Below are positions 2 through 39,234 of a stretch of 64,000 bases of DNA, in pieces. How positions within the stretch are numbered: position 1 is the first letter of the stretch; every line of letters starts with the position of its first letter. The DNA is from a virus. The notes under the pieces were generated by a model. The model ran no database searches. It was not told the origin of the DNA and was given only the letters and a program-made list of their open reading frames with translations. The position numbers and the translations under genes are program-made. The stretch lies in the UHGV virus genome UHGV-0363627; one strand, 5' to 3'.

Positions 2-3000
2 GCATTAGATGATGCTGCAACAGCTTTAGGTATTACTACTGAAGGTAAAAATATAAATGATTTAGCAAATGCCATTTATCGTAAATATAATGAAAAAGGA
101 TATATAACAAGAGTTTATAACGATGTAGGATTTCCTATTATTGATAGAGAACTAAATGTAAAACGATTTAGTGATGAAATGACAGAAGAAGAAAAGAAGA
201 TACATGACTTTATGGTTCTTCTACAATTTAATAAACTAAATCAATTAGGTAATATTGTTAATAATACTCTTAGTGTATTGACAGCAGATAAATTTGGTGC
301 TAAACCTAGTTATTATGCTACAGATAGAATATTTAGACAAATAGATGATATATTAGCAAGTGATGATAAATTATATACTGAAAATAAAAAAGGTGAAATA
401 ATTCCAGTGGTTGAAGCTATTTATCCTGGTATTAGTAAAGGTGTAGATAATTTTGCTAAAGCTGATATTAAAAATAGTAGTTATTCTTCTCTTGCTGCTA
501 TGTTGAAATATTCTTCTGTCACTGCATTAAAAGTCGGACAACAAGTATTTGAAACAGCAGAACCTAATTTTGTAGAACTTATATATAATATAGCTAAATA
601 TACAAAAAATGGAAAATTATCAGAGAAACTTTATAATGATTATAAGAAATATCTTGTTAAGAGATTATATGTAAATGATAATAATCCAGCTATTATATAT
701 CCTATTAGTCTAGATGATGATGGTAGTGTATTAATCAAGCAATCCTCTACGGGCAAGCTACATATAGATATTGAAAATGAAATGTCTAGAATTGCTGGTA
801 TTGGAAGTGAATATACTGAAAATACTAATTTTAAAATAGCTGATATTAATAATCCAACTAAAGAAGAAGTATTAGCTTTTGCTAAATTAAGTCCTGCTCA
901 AAAAGTTCTTTATATTAAAGAGAATTTTGATAATATAGGTATATTTGATTTTATAACAGTAAATAAGTTTAATGAATTTACTATTAAACAAAAAGGTTAT
1001 ATATCAAATGAACTTAAACTTAATCAAGGTAATTATACTAATGATTATTTATATGATTTATTTGATTTAGCTTATTTAAGTAGCAATCCAATTATTAGAT
1101 TGGCTGCAATAGACTTGGTAAAATATACTTATGTTGTAGAAGGAAATAATTTTAAAGCTGGTAATATTGCTCGTGCTATTTCTACTTTACCATTAAAACC
1201 TACTAATGTTGGTGGTATGAATATTGGATTTAGTACTAAACTTGCTTTTGATAATTATAGATTTATTGCTCCAACTACAAATGTTTCAGAAAAATTAATT
1301 ATTGGTTTTATTCGTCAAAATTATGATGATTTTCCTGCTAGATTTGTAGATGTAGATAAAATTATAAAGAAAAATGTAAATCATGCTCAAGATATTGAAT
1401 TTAATAATGATGGTTCGATAACTGTTTATACACATGGTATAGCTAATACAAAAGATTTTAATAAATTAGGATTATTGAATAAAGATGAGGCTTATGAAAT
1501 AATAAAAATTAGACATGGTAATACAGCAAAATTATATTATGGAATTAATCATATAGAAAATGTTACATATTATCCATTAAATAAACTTGATGAAATTGAT
1601 ACTAATAAAACAATAGAAGATAGTTCAGTTGCTCGCAACAACGTATATAAATCTTTATTCGATGTTGTATATGGATATAGAAGCGAAAAACTTGCTGAAC
1701 AATATGCTTTATATAAAGATAAATTTGTTAATGCTACAGAAATAACTATAGATGAAACAAATAATATAAGTGAAGTATTAGCTATAGCAAATCATAATTT
1801 CTTTAATAAGTCACAATTAATTCTTCGTAATACTGGATTTACAGGAGATAAATTAATAATAAATAATGCTATAAATGGTAAGAAATATGCTGCTACAAAA
1901 ATTACAGAAGAAGTAGCTAATAGACTTAGAGGAAATACTAGTAATCTTTATCAAGATTATATTGATTTTCTTGATAAATATCCTAATTATAAACCAGAAA
2001 GTGATTACGGTATCTTGCCCGTAGTGGAATATGGCAAAAGATATAGTAGCATTGGAGAACGTGATGCAGCTAGTTTTGCTATTAAACAAACTGTTGCTAT
2101 TGCTAGACAAGAAAGTTTTGGCGGTAATAAATTAGCTGAAAGTATGATGAAAATACTTAATAATGCTAATATCAATTATAAAGATACAAAAGAAATTGCC
2201 AACAATCTTCCTGTTGCTTCTTCGACTGTTGCTAAATTTGTAAAAGCTACTGCTGATAGATTGATATATGATGCTTATCATTTTACTATTGATGAGAATG
2301 GTAATGAATTGAAATTAAATGATGCTAGAGTTATAGAAAGAGTGTTGAAAGATGATAATCTTGAACGTAAGTTTATTACTCTTATTAATACAATCACATC
2401 ATTTAAAGATAGATATTCATTTAGTAATATTAATGTTGAAGGTTATGATGAAGATACAAAAGAAGCGTTAGAAACAATAAAAGAAGCTATTAATAAATTA
2501 AATAATGATACTATTGTGCTTCAAGCTAAAAGAAGTTATTGGAGAGAATTTATTAATAGTAGTACTACTAATCCTAATATTAAATCTGGATTGCAAGATG
2601 CTCTTACATTTTATGGAGATACAGGATTTTTTGATTTGAATATACAAGATATTGCATTTAATCATAATCAATTAGTTCAAGCTGTTGTTGGTGAAAGTCA
2701 AGCTATTATTAAAGAAGGAGAGTTTAGAGGTAAAATTGAAGCTCAACAATTTACTAAAATGCTTTCTGATTTAAAAGCTGAAGCTGCTAAAAATGGTAAA
2801 TCTATTGATTGGAATAAAATTGTTGATGAAAATGGTCGTCTTGTTCAGCCAAATAATAAAGAATGGTTTGAAATGAAAGACAAACTTAATAAAGAATATG
2901 TAAATGCTGTAGATGAAACAAAAGATAAATTTAGTGTTAAAGCATTAAGAGCTAAATTAGAATATGATGCATTTATAGCTGCAACTACAGAGTCACAATT

Positions 3001-6000
3001 TATTCCTATTAAAGATTATGATTATAACGGAGAAGAAGTTACTGTTGATTATACAAGAGAAACTATTACTAATCAATATGCTGTATTATATAATAAAAAC
3101 CCAAAAGTTGCTGAATTGTATGCTGAATATAAAAGATTGATGAAAGAACAATCTGATATATTAAGTAATATAATTGGTAATACTCCAACAGAAGAACAAG
3201 ATGAAAAGATACATCAAATATATCTTAAACTTCGTTTAATGACTTCTGACTTTGATGAAAATTATGAAATTAAAGATGATGAAGATTTGACTGCTGCTAG
3301 AACATTACAAGCATTTATTGATAGAAATAGATATTTAAAAGAATTGTTTTTTAATAGAAATATTAAAGTTGGTTTTGAAGAACAGCTTAATAATGCTTTA
3401 AAAACAATATCTGATATTGAAGGTGCTCGTGACCATGAAGGACGACTTCTTATTCCAATGAATATTCTTATGCAGAATAAAGAATATAGAAAAGCTAAAG
3501 CGTGGTTGAGAGCTAATGCAATGTATAAACCAGATGCTGATTTTATTAATGAAATTAATGCTTGTTTGACTGCATTAAATGACCCAACTATTGGTAAAAC
3601 TTCTGCTTTAAATATTGCTATTGAACAAGCAAACGCTCGTGATGAATTTGGTATTATTGATGGTAGAAAGTTTACTGCTGAACAAATAGAAAGAATTAAA
3701 AAAGAAACAGTTCGCAATTTCCATTTTAGTAAAAGAAGTGGTTTGCCTTATGCTGGTATATTAAGAAGTCAAGATGATGATGTTGTTATTTATAAATATG
3801 ATTTCTATGATAGTTTGCGAAATGATAAAGTTAAGTCAGAAGATGAAATAGAAGATATAGAAGCAATTAATAAAATTCTTGATAAAGTTTGGGATAGTAC
3901 AGCTAGAGTGCTTAATACAGGTAGCGATAAACTTACTATAGATGATTTGAATAAATTGTCTAAGTTGTTGGAATTATACGGCCTTGATAAAACTAAAAAT
4001 AAAAAGGCTGCTGAATTTATTGCTGAAGAATGTGTTGTTGATTATAATAATGCAGCTTATGAAGCGGATAAAGCAAGAGCATATAAAAACGGTGATGAAT
4101 GGTATCAAGCATGGAAGAAAGTATTTGAAACTGTAGATGATGATGGTAATGTTGTTCCTAATACAATATTCTATGGTGTTCTTAAACCTAAAGATGAAAG
4201 TAAATGGATTGACAAAAATAAAACTGATTATATAAGATTGATTAATAAACACGTTCAAAATACTAAAACTCAATATTACTATGAAGTTATGAGAACTAAT
4301 AGAGATAATATGAGTAAAGAAGAATTTAAAAAATGGTATTTTGATAATCATTATTATAATCCTTATAGTCGTCAATATGAACCATTGAAAATATGGACAC
4401 ATACTGAATATATAGATGAAAGTGGTAATAAAGCTAAAGGTAAATGGGAAGCTAGAATTAATCAGACAGATTTAGAGCCTAATAAAGATTATGTTAATGA
4501 GAAGTATGATAAGAATTATCCAACTTATAAAGAAGGTAGTACATATAAGGCTAAGCAAGAAGATGGAACTCGTAAAGAAGTAAGTTATGATAATTCTAAT
4601 TATAAATCATTAAATGAATATGAACTGAAACTGTTGAACAATTTAAAGAAGATAATGATGCAATATGCTTTTACTGATAGTAATAAATATTATGTAAAAC
4701 AAGGTTATCTTCCTTCTATTAGTAAAGAAAAAGAATTTGATTATAAAGATATATTTAAAGAAGCTATGGCATTTATTGGTGTTAGTTCTAATATTCCTAC
4801 TGATACTAAATGGCAAGATTTGGAGAATATAACTTATAATACTGATGAAGAAAAAGATAATCCAATGTTGCAAATGTTATTAGATAGAAATAGTTCTAAG
4901 TATGTTGAAGTTCCTCATTTTCCTAAACCTGGTGAAAGTGAAGCTGAATTTATTAAACGTAAACAAGAAGCTAAAGATGTTAATGCTAAGATAAGAGAAG
5001 AAAATGAAAAGATACATAATCAATTGATTAATAAAGATTGGGAAAATGTATTTAAATCGTTTATAATAAATAGTGCTAGATATGATGCTATTAGATTAAT
5101 TAAAGGTAAATTATATGCAGCCGATGATGCTTTATTAAGTTATGATGCTTATAAACTTAATTATAAGAATGAATTAATACAAGATTATAGATTAAGTGCA
5201 GAAAGTGAAGTTGAATATAAAACTGAAAGTAATCGTAATACATCTGCTCAATTAAGAAATTATATTCGTAGAGTTGTAAGAGATACTTATAAGAATAATA
5301 CAAATCCTCAGTTATTGAAGTTTGCTAGTATTGCTCAAAATATGGCTGGTAGTAAATATATGATGTTAAATATTACTGGTGGTATTGCAAATATTCTTAC
5401 AGGTCAGACTAACCTTGCAGCAGAAAGATTTGCTAGAGAATACTTTAATGAGAAAGATTGGATAATTGGTCAAAATCTTTATGTTGGTGGTGCTATTAGT
5501 TATATGTCTAATATGTATAATGATAAATCTACTACATTACAAGATGGTATTATAAAACTAGCAAATGTTGTTGATTATGATAGAATAGCAGAATTGACAG
5601 CTAATGATATAAAAGGTAATATAAAGAAATTAAGAGGTTTATTATTTACTCCACAAACTGCTGGTGAACATTATATGCAAAATACTGTTCTTCTAACAAT
5701 GATGAAAAATCATCATATAATTAAAGATGCTAATGGTAATGCTAAAATAGTATCGTTTGAAATGTTTAAACGAGAAAAAGAACTAGAAGCATTAATGATT
5801 GTATTGAATGAAGAAGAACGTGCTGCTTATGATAAATTCTTTAATGATATTCTTGCTGATGAAAATAGACGTGCTAATTATAATATGTTTAATGATAATG
5901 TCATAACAGATTTTATTAGAACACATCTTACAAAAGAAAGAATGGTTGAATTTGTAAGAAAACGTAAAGAGTTAATGAAAGAAGCAAAGAAGAAGTTTGA

Positions 6001-6943
6001 AGAATTACCAGATGTTTATAGTCAGTTTGAACTTGTTGATGATTATGCAAATCTAAAAGCTGATGCAGATATTGAACTTAAAGACTTTGCAAAACTTGTA
6101 GAAAAAGTTATCAGAGTTAATAAGAAAATACACGGCGTATATGATAAAATTGGTGCTGCTAAAATTGAAAATGAATGGTGGGGTGGTATTGTAATGCAAT
6201 TCCATAAACATCTATATCCTGGATTTAAGAAAAGATATAGACGACATGGTTATTACGATGAAGTATTAGAAACTATTGAAAAAGGTAGTTATAATAGTCT
6301 TATGCAATTTATTAATACTCCTTATCATTTGACTAAATATAAACGCAGTCAAGAAGAACTTGATACACTACAAGCTATTCAAGAATATTGTAAAAATGCT
6401 ATTAGTTTTATTACTCATATCAGACTTAATTATAATCTATTATCAGAAAGTGAACGTGCTAATATTAGACGTGCTTATGCTGATTTTGTTTATACAGGTG
6501 CAGCTGTAATTGGAGCAATAGCATTGACTGCAATAGCTGGAGGTGATGATGATAATGAAGAAAGTATTTGGTATAACTTATTAATGTATCATGCTGATAG
6601 ACTTGCTTCAGAAGCATTTGCATTTACTCCTATTGGTCTTGCTAGTGAAGGTGAAAAACTTTGGTCTAGTCCTGTTGCTATATGGCAAAGTGGTGATGAT
6701 TTATTAAAAGGATTAGCATTTGGAGTTCAAACATTAATTGATAATGGATTTGAAGGAGAATATAAAACAGGTCGTTATGCTGGAGAAAATAAACTTAAAG
6801 TTATAATTGGTAGAAATATACCTGTATATCGTAATATACAACGTATTATTGAATTGCCTGATAATAATAGTTATTATAAACTTGGAGATAATGCTTTGTC
6901 TGTTATACCTGTTAAAAAAATAGGTGAATGGATAAGAGAATAA
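2..6943 (+). CDS. Giant virion-associated protein, 5' partial. The reading frame is open from the window start. The first in-frame ATG is at 179. The stretch from 179 to the stop is 2254 aa.
   Basis: Frame 2 is open from nt 2 to the TAA at 6941-6943 with no stop upstream of the ATG at 179. Size and position at the end of the structural block resemble crAss-like giant virion proteins. No catalytic motif recognised. Confidence 0.6.
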   Translation, partial: ALDDAATALGITTEGKNINDLANAIYRKYNEKGYITRVYNDVGFPIIDRELNVKRFSDEMTEEEKKIHDFMVLLQFNKLNQLGNIVNNTLSVLTADKFGAKPSYYATDRIFRQIDDILASDDKLYTENKKGEIIPVVEAIYPGISKGVDNFAKADIKNSSYSSLAAMLKYSSVTALKVGQQVFETAEPNFVELIYNIAKYTKNGKLSEKLYNDYKKYLVKRLYVNDNNPAIIYPISLDDDGSVLIKQSSTGKLHIDIENEMSRIAGIGSEYTENTNFKIADINNPTKEEVLAFAKLSPAQKVLYIKENFDNIGIFDFITVNKFNEFTIKQKGYISNELKLNQGNYTNDYLYDLFDLAYLSSNPIIRLAAIDLVKYTYVVEGNNFKAGNIARAISTLPLKPTNVGGMNIGFSTKLAFDNYRFIAPTTNVSEKLIIGFIRQNYDDFPARFVDVDKIIKKNVNHAQDIEFNNDGSITVYTHGIANTKDFNKLGLLNKDEAYEIIKIRHGNTAKLYYGINHIENVTYYPLNKLDEIDTNKTIEDSSVARNNVYKSLFDVVYGYRSEKLAEQYALYKDKFVNATEITIDETNNISEVLAIANHNFFNKSQLILRNTGFTGDKLIINNAINGKKYAATKITEEVANRLRGNTSNLYQDYIDFLDKYPNYKPESDYGILPVVEYGKRYSSIGERDAASFAIKQTVAIARQESFGGNKLAESMMKILNNANINYKDTKEIANNLPVASSTVAKFVKATADRLIYDAYHFTIDENGNELKLNDARVIERVLKDDNLERKFITLINTITSFKDRYSFSNINVEGYDEDTKEALETIKEAINKLNNDTIVLQAKRSYWREFINSSTTNPNIKSGLQDALTFYGDTGFFDLNIQDIAFNHNQLVQAVVGESQAIIKEGEFRGKIEAQQFTKMLSDLKAEAAKNGKSIDWNKIVDENGRLVQPNNKEWFEMKDKLNKEYVNAVDETKDKFSVKALRAKLEYDAFIAATTESQFIPIKDYDYNGEEVTVDYTRETITNQYAVLYNKNPKVAELYAEYKRLMKEQSDILSNIIGNTPTEEQDEKIHQIYLKLRLMTSDFDENYEIKDDEDLTAARTLQAFIDRNRYLKELFFNRNIKVGFEEQLNNALKTISDIEGARDHEGRLLIPMNILMQNKEYRKAKAWLRANAMYKPDADFINEINACLTALNDPTIGKTSALNIAIEQANARDEFGIIDGRKFTAEQIERIKKETVRNFHFSKRSGLPYAGILRSQDDDVVIYKYDFYDSLRNDKVKSEDEIEDIEAINKILDKVWDSTARVLNTGSDKLTIDDLNKLSKLLELYGLDKTKNKKAAEFIAEECVVDYNNAAYEADKARAYKNGDEWYQAWKKVFETVDDDGNVVPNTIFYGVLKPKDESKWIDKNKTDYIRLINKHVQNTKTQYYYEVMRTNRDNMSKEEFKKWYFDNHYYNPYSRQYEPLKIWTHTEYIDESGNKAKGKWEARINQTDLEPNKDYVNEKYDKNYPTYKEGSTYKAKQEDGTRKEVSYDNSNYKSLNEYELKLLNNLKKIMMQYAFTDSNKYYVKQGYLPSISKEKEFDYKDIFKEAMAFIGVSSNIPTDTKWQDLENITYNTDEEKDNPMLQMLLDRNSSKYVEVPHFPKPGESEAEFIKRKQEAKDVNAKIREENEKIHNQLINKDWENVFKSFIINSARYDAIRLIKGKLYAADDALLSYDAYKLNYKNELIQDYRLSAESEVEYKTESNRNTSAQLRNYIRRVVRDTYKNNTNPQLLKFASIAQNMAGSKYMMLNITGGIANILTGQTNLAAERFAREYFNEKDWIIGQNLYVGGAISYMSNMYNDKSTTLQDGIIKLANVVDYDRIAELTANDIKGNIKKLRGLLFTPQTAGEHYMQNTVLLTMMKNHHIIKDANGNAKIVSFEMFKREKELEALMIVLNEEERAAYDKFFNDILADENRRANYNMFNDNVITDFIRTHLTKERMVEFVRKRKELMKEAKKKFEELPDVYSQFELVDDYANLKADADIELKDFAKLVEKVIRVNKKIHGVYDKIGAAKIENEWWGGIVMQFHKHLYPGFKKRYRRHGYYDEVLETIEKGSYNSLMQFINTPYHLTKYKRSQEELDTLQAIQEYCKNAISFITHIRLNYNLLSESERANIRRAYADFVYTGAAVIGAIALTAIAGGDDDNEESIWYNLLMYHADRLASEAFAFTPIGLASEGEKLWSSPVAIWQSGDDLLKGLAFGVQTLIDNGFEGEYKTGRYAGENKLKVIIGRNIPVYRNIQRIIELPDNNSYYKLGDNALSVIPVKKIGEWIRE
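742..759 (-). repeat. Dispersed motif copy (orientation R: ATCCTCTACGGGCAAGCT on + strand) inside the giant ORF, coding SSTGKL. Consensus is tGTAGCTTGCCCGTAG(A)GGAATG.
   Basis: Match to the family consensus on the minus strand. Confidence 0.8.
2022..2040 (+). repeat. Degenerate motif copy ATCTTGCCCGTAGTGGAAT inside the giant ORF (codes ILPVVEY)
   Basis: 14/18 match, GTAGTGG variant. Confidence 0.45.
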
Positions 6944-33848: not shown

Positions 33849-34076
33849 CTATAGCCATAAATCAATATATTTAATAATACCACTTATAGTAGCAAAAATT
33901 ACAACAACGCTAATAACAAATGTTATAATATCAAATAGCTTAACACCTCGACCATATCGAATATCAGATACAATACAACATATAACAAATACACTTATAA
34001 TAAGCATAACTAGAATAGCAACAATAAGTGCACTTAATACAAAGAGATTTATTATATAAGTCATATTATTTGGCAT
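33849..34076 (-). CDS. small membrane protein (75 aa, two TM helices)
   Basis: Hydrophobic stretches LFVLSALIVAILVMLIISVFVICCIV and ITFVISVVVIFATISGII. Confidence 0.45.
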   Translation of the reverse strand: MPNNMTYIINLFVLSALIVAILVMLIISVFVICCIVSDIRYGRGVKLFDIITFVISVVVIFATISGIIKYIDLWL

Positions 34077-34393
34077 TAATCCTCTACGGGCAAGCTACGA
34101 TTGACTTCTTTAGCAACAAATTCATCTAATAAAGCAGCAGTTCTATTACTAAATTCATCAAAAGCAGCAGTAAAACATTCAAGAAATTGTTTATTACTAT
34201 AACGATATTCTCGTTTAAGTCCATCTTTAATAATAATAAATCTATCTGCCAATAGAGATACATTTGCATCTTCACCAAAACATCTTTTCAGATATTCAAT
34301 AGTAACACCTCTAACATTAGCATTATTTCTAACAACATTAGACAAAGCTAATACATGAGCTGGAGTTTCAGGTTTTTCTTTTTTCTGTTTCAT
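34076..34393 (-). CDS. hypothetical protein (105 aa). The C-terminus is formed by a motif copy (…SLPVED-stop).
   Basis: ORF. Motif at 34079-34096 supplies the last 6 codons. Confidence 0.45.
   Translation of the reverse strand: MKQKKEKPETPAHVLALSNVVRNNANVRGVTIEYLKRCFGEDANVSLLADRFIIIKDGLKREYRYSNKQFLECFTAAFDEFSNRTAALLDEFVAKEVNRSLPVED
34079..34096 (-). repeat. Motif copy (R) ATCCTCTACGGGCAAGCT forming the last codons of CDS 34076..34393
   Basis: Exact consensus. Confidence 0.85.
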
Positions 34394-34517
34394 AACTAAT
34401 TAATTTAAAAGATTTACAACTACAAATATAATAATATTCTCACATATAACAATTATTATTACAATTATTATTTACAGCAATATAGTATATTATTATAACA
34501 GATGATGTTATAACTAT

Positions 34518-34573
34518 TGCTACAAATAAAGAAACCGCATAAGCTGTAACAAATGAAACAACTGTATGCGGTT
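34518..34573 (-). terminator. rho-independent terminator (stem AACCGCATA / TATGCGGTT) ending the long non-coding transcript downstream of gene 35018..35590
   Basis: 9-bp stem 34533-34541/34565-34573, then UCUUUAUUUGUAG on the minus strand. Confidence 0.55.
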
Positions 34574-34708
34574 ATAAAAATAAATATAATTGATATGGAA
34601 AATGTAATGTCAAGAGAGTTATTATTGAAAGTCTTATAGATAAATCAACAAAGGTAATAAACGAATAATAAATGGTATCATAATAAAGATAATAAAGGAC
34701 TAATAAAA

Positions 34709-34756
34709 GGTATAACAAAAGGTATAGCAAAAGATATAGCAAAAGATATAGCAAAT
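34709..34756. repeat. Four tandem 12-mers (GGTATAACAAAA GGTATAGCAAAA GATATAGCAAAA GATATAGCAAAT) in a non-coding locus
   Basis: Direct tandem repetition read from sequence. Produces the spurious LYLLLY ORF on the minus strand. Confidence 0.8.
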
Positions 34757-35017
34757 GAAGATATTGAAGATGAGATTATAACTAAAAGTTATAGGCATAT
34801 AACGAAAAGTTATAATGATGATGCAAGAGTAATTCGAGCAGAAGATATAATAACAATTAGAATAATGAGAGTTAGAGTTGTAAGAGAAGCAATTAGAGTA
34901 AGAATAATAGTAGTAAGAATTATAGCAGCAAGATATAGAAGTTTATTAGGAAGAGGATTAGGAAGTGGAGCAGTAGGAATAGCTCCAGGTACTCATGCTC
35001 ATTCTCCTCTTCTATTA

Positions 35018-35590
35018 TTAATCAGCTTTAATTTTACCACTAGCTGTTATTAATTTATCTAAATCTTTTTCTTTATACATATCATTATAATCTTGTATAA
35101 ATTCTTCTCTTTTACCATAAAATAGTTCATTATGATTAATAACAACTTTATGAATATCGGTTGTAAGACGAATTATATTATCTCTTTGCAATTTATAAAG
35201 TGCATCTCTAACAAATCTCGTATTTTTACAAATATGTTCATAATCATTTTTATTAATGACAATAACATTACTGTTCCATTTAAGATTTCTAATAAGAACT
35301 TTAATAGTTTTATGAACATATTTATCAGCTGCATCATCTATATCATTCAATCTATCACTAATTTGTTTATATGATACACCTATAGGTTTAGATTCTATAC
35401 CTCTTAATAGTCTATGACCAAATTGTATATCTTGTTCGACATCTTTATAATTATATTGAACATTAAAAGGAGTAGGGAGTATAGTATTTGAACTATTAAC
35501 AATAGAATTAATATATCTACTTTCTGTATTAGCAAGAGCAATTTTATTAGCTTTAGTAAGTTTTTTAGTATCGAATTTGAATGTTGGCAT
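35018..35590 (-). CDS. hypothetical protein (190 aa), paralog A of a duplicated cassette
   Basis: Aligns with 35891..36481 (NLKWNSNVIVINKNDYEHI / NIKYNSNVIVISDDDIDAI etc.). Confidence 0.5.
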   Translation of the reverse strand: MPTFKFDTKKLTKANKIALANTESRYINSIVNSSNTILPTPFNVQYNYKDVEQDIQFGHRLLRGIESKPIGVSYKQISDRLNDIDDAADKYVHKTIKVLIRNLKWNSNVIVINKNDYEHICKNTRFVRDALYKLQRDNIIRLTTDIHKVVINHNELFYGKREEFIQDYNDMYKEKDLDKLITASGKIKAD

Positions 35591-36982: not shown

Positions 36983-37678
36983 TTAGAATGGAACTTCTTC
37001 TGTTGTAGATTCTGCACTTGCTAACAATGCTGCACGATTTGCTTTAGCTGCACGAGCTGATTTCATAGCCTCACGCATCATCTCTCTTGTATCAGCAATA
37101 GCATCACGATATGCTTGAACAAGAAGTTCATCAGTCGGTTGCTCAACACCTACAACATGATAAATATATCTGTCATACTCTTTCACGCCGTACTTATTCT
37201 CCTTACGAGTAAAAGGATTCTGAGCATCAACACCAGCTGGAACAAATTCAGCAAGAATATTCATAGTCAAACCAGCAATATATTGGTCACCAAAGCCAAC
37301 TTCGATAGCATCAGCAATATACTTGATAAATCTACCAAAGAACTGATTACCTCTCATTGCCAATTCAAGCTGCCAATACGGCATCTGAATAGTACGAATA
37401 TAAGCTGGTTGATAAACACCATTAGCATCTTTAGCAACGCCAATAATAGGTTTGTCCAAAGTCATGAACAAATTCCAATATTCCTTGCCAGTTTTGCCAT
37501 TACGTTTGTCAAGCTGAACAGATGCAATAGTAACAGTAAGGTCTTTGTTAGCTTGATTGCCTTTCAAAGCTGCTACAATTTCATCGTAAGGCTTTGCCGG
37601 CACAGGAGTAACATTATTAGCTACTGCATTGTTAGCTGCATTACCATTCACATTCTGAGTTGTTTTATTTGTTGCCAT
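36983..37678 (-). CDS. putative single-stranded DNA-binding protein (SSB-like; acidic C-terminal tip …TTEEVPF)
   Basis: 231 aa. N/Q-rich N-terminus, beta-rich middle, C-terminal acidic tail ending in PF. GC content locally elevated. Confidence 0.4.
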   Translation of the reverse strand: MATNKTTQNVNGNAANNAVANNVTPVPAKPYDEIVAALKGNQANKDLTVTIASVQLDKRNGKTGKEYWNLFMTLDKPIIGVAKDANGVYQPAYIRTIQMPYWQLELAMRGNQFFGRFIKYIADAIEVGFGDQYIAGLTMNILAEFVPAGVDAQNPFTRKENKYGVKEYDRYIYHVVGVEQPTDELLVQAYRDAIADTREMMREAMKSARAAKANRAALLASAESTTEEVPF

Positions 37679-37805
37679 AATAATTAAGTATTAAATTGTT
37701 AATAATAAATTATACCGACACACATCATCGGCAAAATCTTTTATGTCATTAATATGAGATGTCACATTTTAGTTAAGCTGGTATAACACCAGCCCAACCA
37801 TTAAT

Positions 37806-38069
37806 TTAATCTGTGACATAAAGCACATTAGTAAGAAAAGCACAACCACTAACTATAGCACACAGCATCGCATTAACACTATCTACATGATAATAATTAA
37901 GATAAGCAATCGCAAATACCACAGCTACTATTAGCAAGAAGATAGTAGCCAAAGACTTCAAGATAATCTTTTTCATGATTAATAATTTAAAAAGGATAAA
38001 TATCGTCATCATCAATGACATTATAACTCTCAGTTGTGGTATTTTCATCTTCGATGATTTTCTCACCAC
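37806..38069 (-). CDS. small membrane protein (87 aa)
   Basis: Hydrophobic helices. First gene of the minus block next to the switch region. Confidence 0.4.
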   Translation of the reverse strand: MVRKSSKMKIPQLRVIMSLMMTIFILFKLLIMKKIILKSLATIFLLIVAVVFAIAYLNYYHVDSVNAMLCAIVSGCAFLTNVLYVTD

Positions 38070-38238
38070 ATATAGCTTCTATTAAAGCGTCTGTAAAATT
38101 ATTTTCTATATATTCCATGATTATCAGTTTTAGCACAATCAACACCGACTGCAAAATCTTTTATGTTATTACCATGAGAATAATCAACTTTGTTATTTTC
38201 TCTGTCTTTAGCATACGGGGGTATCTAATTCAATTTTA

Positions 38239-38252
38239 AGACCCGGGGGTCT
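38239..38252. promoter_or_regulatory. G/C-rich near-palindromic box AGACCCGGGGGTCT, the first of three G-rich boxes in the switch region. The others are GAAGGAGGTGAAC at 38455-38467 and ATAGGGGAGGGGGCTG at 38683-38698.
   Basis: GC islands in an otherwise about 25% GC intergenic region. Each is followed by a degenerate 35-40-nt direct repeat (…ATAGCTTCATTTTTATAACTATAAATTC / ATAGCCTCACCTTCACAACTATAAACTC…). Confidence 0.4.
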
Positions 38253-38789
38253 ATCATACATAGCTTCATTTTTATAACTATAAATTCTAAATTCAACTAT
38301 AAATTCCACTACAAACTCTACTACATTTTCATCATTCAAATCATTATAATTTTTACTTTATTCTTCACCTGCTTTATTACTTGAATTATTTTTAATATCC
38401 TTATCATAATCACCTATTATATAAGAGGATGTTCAATCACTTTTAGAAGGAGGTGAACTATATATAGCCTCACCTTCACAACTATAAACTCAATATAATT
38501 TATTACTTCATCTCTAGTCTTATCTTTATTTCTTTAATTTTTATACCTATTTTTATTATCTCTGTTTCATCATCTTCATTATTTTACTTTATAATTTTTA
38601 TCATCTTTATTTTCTATCATCTTTATTTTCTATTATATTATTTTCTTATTTCTTATTTCATTCTTTTTTATTATCTATAAATATAGGGGAGGGGGCTGTT
38701 CAATCATCATCTTTAATAGAGGGTTTATTATATTCACCTTCTCTTTTATATTTATCTTTATTATTTGCTATCTCTTTGTTGTTTATTGT

Positions 38790-38806
38790 ATCTTGCCCGT
38801 AGAGGA
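38790..38806 (+). repeat. Motif copy ATCTTGCCCGTAGAGGA in the divergent switch region. Loop of a perfect 8-bp hairpin TATTGTAT/ATACAATA (38784-38791 / 38811-38818).
   Basis: Consensus core. Confidence 0.8.
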
Positions 38807-38869
38807 TATTATACAATATCTACAACTTCATCTTCTATTATATCTTCTGTTATATTAGCTGTAAACCTG

Positions 38870-38990
38870 CCTTTATATTAGCTTATTATAGCTATATATA
38901 ATTATATTATTATATAATATATAATATAGATAATATATCTATATAAGATATATAATATAAGATAGATTTATATAGATGTTATTAATCATC
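38870..38990. repeat. About 120-nt almost pure A/T low-complexity tract (TATA/ATAT-type) in the divergent switch region. Candidate DNA-unwinding element.
   Basis: Near-absence of G/C over about 120 nt. Confidence 0.6.
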
Positions 38991-38994
38991 TTAA

Positions 38995-39234
38995 TTGTTA
39001 AAAGTTGTTACAGCTATTGTTTATCTCGATAATATTACTTATAATTGTATTGATGAAATTATAAATGATAATGATATGAATAAAGTTATTGAAAAAGCTG
39101 AAGCATTTATAAGTAAAAATAAAAGACAAAATGCTGCTATAAAAGCTAAAGAAGAACCTAAAGAAGAAATTAAAGTTAAAACCAATAGAAAGTTTAATCT
39201 TGGAGAACTAGGAATTAATTGTATAACCAAATAA
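38995..39234 (+). CDS. hypothetical protein (79 aa), first gene of the plus-strand block
   Basis: ORF. Confidence 0.4.
   Translation: MLKVVTAIVYLDNITYNCIDEIINDNDMNKVIEKAEAFISKNKRQNAAIKAKEEPKEEIKVKTNRKFNLGELGINCITK

Follow-up and report, generated by a model that had tools for sequence, protein, structure and literature searches.

A repeat-rich intergenic region beside RepL-like genes in a crAss-like phage: a candidate control region of the RepL module

The intergenic region and its neighbouring genes

We studied a 624-bp gap between 2 minus-strand genes (35018-35590 and 34076-34393) in a stretch of 64,000 nucleotides from the virus genome UHGV-0363627, here referred to as the window. The gap, hereafter called the locus (34394-35017), is bordered by a gene for a RepL-like protein of 190 amino acids (aa) on the right side and by a gene for a protein of 105 aa on the left side. 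It contains repeats built from the half-site TATAAC, a purine-rich variable zone and an intrinsic terminator, and we tentatively interpret it as a cis-acting control region of the RepL module. The source phage is a crAss-like phage from the human gut with a G+C content of 27%, and the window encodes a Crass_capsid major capsid protein (MCP) and a BACON-domain protein. The capsid protein was 80% identical in sequence to those of cr11_1/cr110_1 and 74% identical to that of Carjivirus communis, the prototypic p-crAssphage. The genes located at about 7.7-39.8 kb are encoded on the minus strand, while most of the later genes and a 2254-aa open reading frame (ORF, 179-6943) are on the plus strand.

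Two palindromic sequences of 17 nt, TATAAC-N5-GTTATA, are located near the middle of the locus, and a related dyad with a longer spacer is found in its left part (Table 1). The hexamer TATAAC/GTTATA was observed 10 times in the locus compared with an expected number of 1.02 (P=1.4e-7), which is the maximum of the window. The tandem 12-mers upstream of the two dyads on the plus strand are direct repeats of the same half-site together with its loop, with half-sites at 34711, 34723, 34735 and 34747. The fraction of purines on the plus strand reached 0.713 at 34680-34979, the highest value in the entire window, and the minus strand is hence pyrimidine-rich.

The first-pass annotation of the sequence had listed 4 tandem 12-mers, AGTAAGAAT-type repeats, a pyrimidine-rich minus strand and a minus-strand terminator with a 9-bp stem, all of which were recovered here at the positions given in Table 1. 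It had also described a nested hairpin. Both the inner GGAGC/GCTCC hairpin and the outer stem are present in the source phage; the outer stem was not kept in the relatives, in which only the arms of the inner hairpin have been conserved.

The AT-rich portion of the left block, with its own short tandem 12-mer, might be an unwinding element; the promoter of the 105-aa gene is also located in it. It is followed by the terminator and by a near-invariant block of 87 nt. The block includes a mini-ORF on the plus strand, MENVMSRELLLKVL, which ends in a stop codon; 3 synonymous and 3 non-synonymous changes were identified in the relatives, giving no signal either way. On the minus strand, the stem of the terminator is followed by TCTTTATTTGT (also given as UCUUUAUUUGU), with the U-rich tail at 34532-34522. 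A consensus scan missed the terminator owing to its loop of more than 8 nt.

The 190-aa and 196-aa proteins encoded to the right of the locus are homologues of p-crAssphage proteins that have been annotated as RepL, of which RepL1 passed the Pfam family RepL (PF05732) with 31.8 bits. The 2 proteins in the window are similar to RepL1 and gave no direct match to PF05732; the profile of the RepL-like family aligned to a Pfam-RepL-positive protein over a winged-helix region with an hhalign probability of 92%.

Table 1. Features of the locus and its right-hand neighbours (positions in the window)
Feature	Position	Strand	Remarks
AT-rich portion of the conserved left block	34394-34532	none	83.5% AT compared with 72.6% in the window
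Bacteroides-type -7 box, TATATTTG	34430-34423	minus	about 30 nt upstream of the start of the 105-aa gene
12-mer, 2.3 copies	34445-34472		within the AT-rich part of the left block
Third dyad, TTATAAC-N7-GTTATAA	34493-34513		in the conserved left block; 7-nt spacer
Intrinsic terminator	34522-34573	minus	9-bp stem AACCGCATA (34533-41)/TATGCGGTT (34565-73) and inner 6-bp stem
Near-invariant 87-nt block	34574-34660	none	holds mini-ORF 34595-34639 and short inverted repeats
130-codon open frame	34661-35053	plus	on the purine-rich strand; last 36 nt shared with the 3' end of the RepL-like gene
Tandem 12-mers	34705-34755	none	4.2 copies, 94% match; TATA(A/G)C then AAAAG
Two 17-nt dyads, TATAAC-N5-GTTATA	34777-34793, 34798-34814	plus	21 bp apart; loops TAAAA and GAAAA
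15-mer repeats, AGTAAGAATAATAGC, 2.5 copies	34897-34933		AGTAAGAAT-type; part of the GTAAGA repeat zone
16-mer, GAAGAGGATTAGGAAG	34950-34965		common to the source phage and p-crAssphage
Outer stem, GAAGAGGA/TCCTCTTC	34950-57/35005-12		encloses the GGAGC/GCTCC hairpin; specific to the source phage
Hairpin GGAGC-N10-GCTCC	34967-34986	plus	arms 34967-71 and 34982-86 conserved; loop hypervariable
RepL-like winged-helix initiator gene, 190 aa	35018-35590	minus	directly precedes the locus in the minus-strand direction
Second RepL-like gene, 196 aa	35891-36481	minus	paralogue in tandem with the 190-aa gene
SSB-like gene	36983-37678		231-aa product is an SSB homologue; follows the second RepL-like gene

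Conservation of the locus and related dyads in other genomes

To examine how the locus varies, we compared 15 distinct variants gathered from gut metagenomes. The left block (34387-34654), in which the promoter region for the 105-aa gene is followed by the terminator and the invariant stretch of 87 nt, differed by 0.027 among 13 of the variants, compared with 0.07-0.13 at the synonymous sites of 4 neighbouring genes. The purine-rich variable zone was between about 350 and about 890 nt long, and its modules have been duplicated, deleted and recombined. In many relatives, those with the long variants, a second module without a start codon was present. Outside the conserved motifs, the purine-rich zone drifts at approximately the neutral (synonymous) rate, with insertions and deletions (indels) of 12, 24 or 36 nt. 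The copy number of the 12-mers differed among the relatives, with a deletion of 24 bp in variant L001, and the length of the GTAAGA repeat zone shifted by the same 12, 24 or 36 nt.

The two 17-nt dyads were found in all 15 variants. Their arms differed by 0.027, compared with 0.141 for the loops and the spacer, and the arms of both the dyads and the GGAGC/GCTCC hairpin were 5-fold more conserved than their loops. The terminator has a G+C-containing stem and a U-tract, and its pairing was kept in the relatives, in which a compensatory change from C-G to U-A was observed. In variants L014 and L017, a G-C pair has been replaced by G.U, which is paired on the minus strand only. These 2 types of change indicate that the terminator is a genuine minus-strand RNA hairpin, and a minus-strand transcript that ends there, as proposed in the first-pass annotation, is plausible. 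In a check of conservation and covariation, which that annotation had recommended, the terminator was supported by covariation and the dyad arms were conserved; the outer stem around the GGAGC/GCTCC hairpin was not kept. The conserved parts of the locus are the left block of 268 nt, the terminator and the arms of the 17-nt dyads, which are placed 21-22 bp apart.

The right-hand neighbour of the locus was a RepL-like gene in every variant, and the similarity between phages broke off sharply at its stop codon. The alleles of 190, 196, 198 and 201 aa (in the window and in L003, L007, L010, L013, L014 and L017) were only 25-35% identical to each other, and these divergent alleles fill the same slot beside left flanks that are nearly identical, with the stop codon as the breakpoint. 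The low identity of alleles in one and the same slot indicates that the RepL-like gene is a swapped cassette. A search of IMG/VR with the 190-aa neighbour returned nothing, since the allele is variable.

No match to the locus was obtained with megablast against the phages in GenBank, and a more sensitive BLAST search identified an unannotated gap of 559 bp in p-crAssphage, which contains 5 dyads, 3 of them at 22-bp spacing. The half-site TATAAC/GTTATA occurred 8 times in this gap compared with an expected number of 0.87. The 2 regions have DNA motifs in common and no protein similarity. The gene order, with RepL and SSB followed by the gap and by the homologue of the 105-aa gene, is the same in the 2 phages, and the gaps are syntenic because these homologues flank both of them. 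Other crAss-type contigs contained 5-12 dyads in a 22-bp phase, and the overall range was 2-12 copies at 21-22 bp. Furthermore, the IMG/VR contigs L022, L024, L027, L031, L032, L035 and L037, of 4-5 kb, are fragments of p-crAssphage that carry the dyad array with 4-9 dyads, and the differing dyad counts suggest that assemblies break at the hypervariable array.

Dyads of the same type were also observed outside the crAss-like phages. A non-coding region of Gokushovirus WZ-2015a (KT264832, 1021-1242) contains the same tandem dyads at a spacing of 21 bp; the dyad region is 88% identical to window positions 34773-34814 over 42 nt and is located 59 nt upstream of a 77-aa ORF. These dyads could represent the site of a shared host factor or a horizontal transfer. 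In an unrelated contig, L042, tandem dyads were located 1 kb upstream of a Pfam-RepL gene. A scan of 185k genomes for tandem dyads gave matches in archaea, Firmicutes and Prevotella, among which no common binding protein was identified and which look like unrelated operators or arrays similar to miniature inverted-repeat transposable elements (MITEs). PHROGs searches with the genes adjacent to dyads in the other contigs were uninformative.

It was noted that 5 contigs from Prevotella/Prevotellaceae metagenome-assembled genomes (MAGs; L044, L048, L051, L050 and L055) contained arrays of 22-bp TATAAC-N5-GTTATA units flanked by inverted repeats, GCTGTGTCAAAAT. With several contigs of one MAG involved, these arrays look like a multicopy MITE-like element. 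In MAGs assigned to Woesearchaeota and Methanosarcinales (L045, L049 and L053), tandem dyads were located 3-10 nt upstream of a conserved gene for a protein of about 200 aa (MVEITENGKLALKLIFTDF...), and apparently the same archaeal gene was found on the opposite strand in L043 and L047. Its product looks like a helix-turn-helix protein by eye, with no support from Pfam or PHROG, and the layout resembles that of autoregulatory operators. The archaeal dyads are probably convergent with the phage motif.

Antisense RNA, open frame and other alternative explanations

Several other explanations of the locus were considered. The one that survived best, which we regard as possible though doubtful, is that the active molecule is a plus-strand RNA, antisense to the gene block, with tandem 6-bp hairpins and purine pentaloops that would regulate the RepL module. 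Such an RNA would start near the dyads, reach the 3'-terminal part of the RepL-like gene and act as a counter-transcript or a protein-binding RNA, with the open frame perhaps being translated. The single mismatches in the dyads were G.T on the plus strand, and thereby G.U-compatible in a plus-strand RNA, in 13 unit types, several of which were common to 3-7 loci, whereas mismatches of the type A.C, wobble-compatible on the minus strand only, were represented by 3 singleton types, and 1 pair was compensated. The asymmetry (P=0.02) is a modest result, and the unit types are not fully independent of each other. The sole change in the GGAGC/GCTCC hairpin, to GTTCC in L005, is also a plus-strand wobble. 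An open frame that starts with ATG is located 50-64 nt past the last dyad in the source lineage, in p-crAssphage and in the gokushovirus; stop codons in the frame were rarer than expected (1 observed compared with 5.3 expected, P=0.03, with one truncated variant excluded), and the right arm of the second dyad forms the sequence TATAAT. On the other hand, no convincing promoter was found and no terminator was seen on the plus strand, and all annotated genes in this crAss block point in the opposite direction. Folding of the entire locus on both strands gave weak z-scores (-2.33 for the plus strand and -2.45 for the minus strand), and single-stranded DNA hairpins at an origin would yield the same mismatch signal. 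Scans for sigma-70 promoters were at chance level, and the Bacteroides promoter motif TTTG-N-TAnnTTTG gave 4 matches in the window, all of which were within genes and uninformative.

A more elaborate version of the antisense explanation, which we consider rather unlikely, is that the dyads constitute an antisense-strand RNA hairpin array with AU stems and purine pentaloops that forms, together with the arginine/lysine-rich peptide frame located 50-64 nt further on, an unannotated regulatory unit of crAss phages. This unit could be a counter-transcript or an RNA-peptide pair similar to N/boxB that controls the RepL module and perhaps the phage-plasmid lifestyle. The loop of the ORF-proximal dyad, GAAAA in 29 loci, may match the GNRNA pentaloop of the lambda boxB in nutR. 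In the comparison with lambda N/boxB, the ORFs begin with MRVRVVREAIRVR or MKRIRKN, and the other dyad units have U-first loops. The counter-transcripts CopA of R1, RNAIII of pIP501 and RNAII of pMV158 target the 5' leader of the rep mRNA. The locus resembles such copy-control systems in that a hairpin RNA may be made beside a rep gene in the antisense direction, and the hairpins are better kept on the antisense strand. It differs from them in that it adjoins the 3' end of the rep gene, and neither a convincing promoter nor a terminator was identified for this RNA.

The frame that begins with MKRIRKN was identified in CrAssphage ZA (L018, 1608-1883, plus strand of the locus) as an unannotated antisense frame of 91 codons, 64 nt past the last dyad. 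Despite variation at 61 of 273 sites, the length of this frame was identical in 8 of 9 variants; the ratio of non-synonymous to synonymous polymorphism (pN/pS) was 0.84 and the composition was not gene-like.

The plus-strand frame of the source phage could be a true gene, whose small and disordered protein would be rich in arginine and evolve fast. We regard this as improbable, although several properties of the frame are those of a gene. None of 5000 composition-matched simulations gave an open frame as long as 130 codons (simulated mean 35 codons), 80% of the residues at codon position 1 were purines, 92% of those at position 3 were A/T, and the codon log-odds score was equal to that of the flanking genes. 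The first ATG/GTG/TTG is located at 34865, 50 nt past the second dyad; the protein would have 62 aa from this ATG, or be longer. The frame has been called as a protein by gene callers in 11 related clusters, all of which belong to one phage group. It was open in all variants, which differed in length by multiples of three, and the N-terminus MRVRVVREAIRVRI was invariant wherever it was present. However, the length differences follow from indels of 12, 24 and 36 nt, that is, from the size of the repeat units. The ATG was kept in 12 of the 15 variants; L014 and L017 contained only a GTG elsewhere and L016 had no start codon. The upstream part of the frame was interrupted by a stop codon in L003 and by a frameshift in L007. 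The numbers of variable sites at codon positions 1, 2 and 3 were 32, 28 and 25, and the pN/pS value was 1.23, compared with 0.18-0.42 in the 4 neighbouring genes.

Furthermore, the C-terminus of the predicted protein is simply whatever sequence is antisense to the adjoining gene, the mean pLDDT (predicted local distance difference test) of the AlphaFold model was 51.5, which is of low confidence, and no match was found in Pfam or PHROG. The frame was unrelated to the antisense frame in p-crAssphage (hhalign probability 0.3%), and the 16-mer is read in different frames in the 2 lineages, which argues that the nucleotides rather than the peptide have been conserved. Duplication of a gene fragment was also considered and was rejected, since no paralogue was found in the window or in p-crAssphage. 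The frame has the length and codon usage of a gene, and a conserved start, purifying selection, homologues beyond close relatives and a confident fold were not found. Despite its coding-like composition, it is not a conserved protein. The statement in the first-pass annotation that the locus contains no credible ORF is too strong and, as worded, wrong, since a gene-like frame of 130 codons that is called in relatives was overlooked; it was right in that no conserved protein is encoded here. This also explains the orphan "protein" that gene callers have reported at the locus.

Equally improbable in our view is that the product of the locus is a CU-rich non-coding RNA from the minus strand, or a structured 3' untranslated region of the RepL operon, comparable to the early RNAs of phi14:2. 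This explanation is favoured by the validated minus-strand terminator and by the invariant block of 87 nt just upstream of it, which is the usual place for the seeds of small RNAs. There is also a precedent in phi14:2, in which 2 long intergenic regions in the early block are transcribed at levels above those of most genes and persist late (bioRxiv 10.1101/2020.03.07.982082). Like the locus, these are long stretches without ORFs that belong to the early or replication genes of a member of the Crassvirales, although they have no sequence, dyads or repeat pattern in common with it. No conserved structure was found on the minus strand beyond the terminator, given the weak folding score and the loss of the outer hairpin in relatives, and the scan of Rfam that had been suggested gave no match with Rfam 15 at a permissive E-value other than mir-338 (E=5.9). 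The mismatches in the dyads disfavour pairing on the minus strand, and most of the "transcript body", which spans about 600 to about 1150 nt, drifts neutrally.

In phi14:2 (NC_021806), we noted a region of about 1.7 kb in the early block (2905-4601) from which 9 small-ORF annotations were removed in 2020 and which matches the published highly transcribed non-coding regions.

We attach a similarly low probability to the explanation that only the left block, with its promoter and terminator, is functional and that the variable part is a functionless recombination scar or a decaying gene remnant at the junction of the RepL cassette. The exact loss of similarity at the RepL stop codon, the swapped RepL alleles, the near-synonymous rate of change, the duplicated and deleted modules and the second module without a start codon in the long variants are all consistent with a scar. 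It is contradicted by the 5-fold higher conservation of the dyad and GGAGC/GCTCC arms compared with the loops, by the fact that both the 16-mer and the dyad arrays have persisted across genera, as seen in p-crAssphage, whose MCP is 74% identical, and by the highly significant enrichment of the half-site.

Some crAss-like phages recode TAG or TGA. A recoded ORF that spans the gap on the minus strand, which the first-pass annotation had named as an observation that would overturn its proposal, can be dismissed almost with certainty, as each frame on the minus strand contained TAA stops along with TGA or TAG ones, long genes on both strands, including the structural block on the plus strand, were intact in the standard code, and no minus-strand ORF was seen when the gap sequences of the relatives were read by eye rather than computed. 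The locus was also considered as the target of a diversity-generating retroelement; this was rejected as no second copy of any part of it was found in the window, in which reverse transcriptase genes were not searched for.

A candidate control region of the RepL module

The explanation that we favour, though tentatively, treats the locus as a cis-acting control element of the RepL module rather than a gene. It would bind the initiator or serve as an origin-type or copy-control site, and its transcript would form the tail of the RepL operon. According to this model, the TATAAC units in the form of N5 dyads, 12-bp direct repeats and the N7 dyad would be bound by a sequence-specific protein, and the RepL-like winged-helix initiator encoded beside the locus suggests itself as a candidate. 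Binding might start replication here, at a second origin similar to that predicted in p-crAssphage, or it might titrate and handcuff the initiator and thereby set the copy number. The minus-strand transcript of the RepL operon would include the locus as its untranslated tail and stop at the conserved intrinsic terminator, and transcription could therefore activate or open the site. What was directly observed is the anatomy of the repeats and how they are conserved, the terminator, the adjacent RepL-like genes and the synteny; the binding protein and the start or control of replication at the locus are inferred. Of the non-coding RNA, the structured 3' untranslated region and the iteron-type site offered in the first-pass annotation, the third was best supported here, and the most informative repeats, the two 17-bp dyads, had not been singled out.

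A preprint on C. communis (Schmidtke et al., PMC10983915) presents 2 origins predicted with OriFinder, one upstream of repL and the other lying about 2.6 kb further downstream and directly following 2 genes that are called a toxin-antitoxin system. The second one, if it is the dyad gap of p-crAssphage, would correspond to the locus in position, between RepL and SSB on one side and the 105-aa homologue on the other, and the p-crAssphage gap shares the dyads, the half-site enrichment and the 16-mer with it. The gap differs from the locus by having 5-12 dyads at 22-bp spacing, by a C-rich half that is absent from the source phage and by the lack of a directly adjacent RepL gene. The published prediction is from OriFinder only, and the text gives no coordinates and does not mention the dyads. 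A search of the literature on crAss origins, iterons and hypervariable intergenic regions yielded only this preprint and the one on phi14:2.

Origins regulated by iterons are known from P1 (oriR/incA), F, R6K and pPS10. The locus is similar to these in having short repeats about 2 helical turns apart beside a gene for a winged-helix initiator, half-sites in both direct and inverted orientation and a copy number that varies. Several units of 17-22 bp in helical phase, as expected for an iteron array, are represented by the 2 dyads 21 bp apart and the 4 half-site repeats of 12 bp, and both RepL-like genes are close by. In contrast to these origins, the units of the locus are dyad-symmetric and only 2 in number, there are no DnaA boxes, and the strand-asymmetric mismatches are unexpected for double-stranded iterons. 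The lambda origin contains 4 dyad-symmetric sites for the O protein and an AT-rich region and is activated by transcription, and P1 has a lytic replicon, RepL/oriL. The locus resembles these in containing dyad-symmetric repeats within a transcribed replication unit and, as in P1, an initiator of the RepL family. However, the origins of lambda and P1 oriL are located within the initiator gene, whereas the array is here placed in an untranslated tail in front of a terminator.

Several observations weigh against a role of the locus as an initiator-bound control region. RepL alleles with only 25-35% identity adjoin identical dyads, and the variants of the locus do not co-vary with the allele. The source phage contains no more than 2 N5 dyads, and the half-site within the 12-mers has been lost in L014 and L017. 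The bias of the mismatches is unexpected for a symmetric double-stranded site and points to hairpins on the plus strand, either of RNA or of single-stranded DNA. Tandem dyads were also present in the gokushovirus and in contigs in which no RepL was found. The placement of the published "ori2" probably fits the dyad gap in p-crAssphage, a match that is based on a verbal description with no coordinates. No DnaA boxes were identified in the locus, and their number in the window (20 compared with 22.6 expected) was at chance level. Finally, the minimum of the cumulative GC skew was located at 38871, in another ORF-poor and AT-rich region that is a better candidate for a primary origin.

The latter region, 37688-39218, is the second ORF-poor stretch of the replication block and contains AT-rich palindromic repeats at about 38870-38990 with short G/C clamps. 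The purine fraction on the plus strand reached the minimum of the window here, 0.28 at 38499. This stretch is a candidate primary origin, perhaps the counterpart of the one that has been predicted in C. communis upstream of repL.

With these points taken into account, a control region of the RepL module remains the explanation that we prefer. The locus most likely belongs to a familiar class of repeat-rich control regions associated with initiators, with a defined dyad that is common to crAss genera. Repeat-rich non-coding regions beside an initiator gene are an ordinary class of element in phages and plasmids. The hypervariable array may explain why assemblies may break at this place. The crAss-like phages are the most abundant viruses in the human gut, and their replication and persistence are still poorly understood. 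The 17-nt dyad TATAAC-N5-GTTATA, which is tied to the RepL module in 2 genera, provides sites that can be tested for a function in replication origins, copy control or antisense regulation, and if the locus is a true origin or copy-control site, it would be a candidate component for replicons in Bacteroidales.

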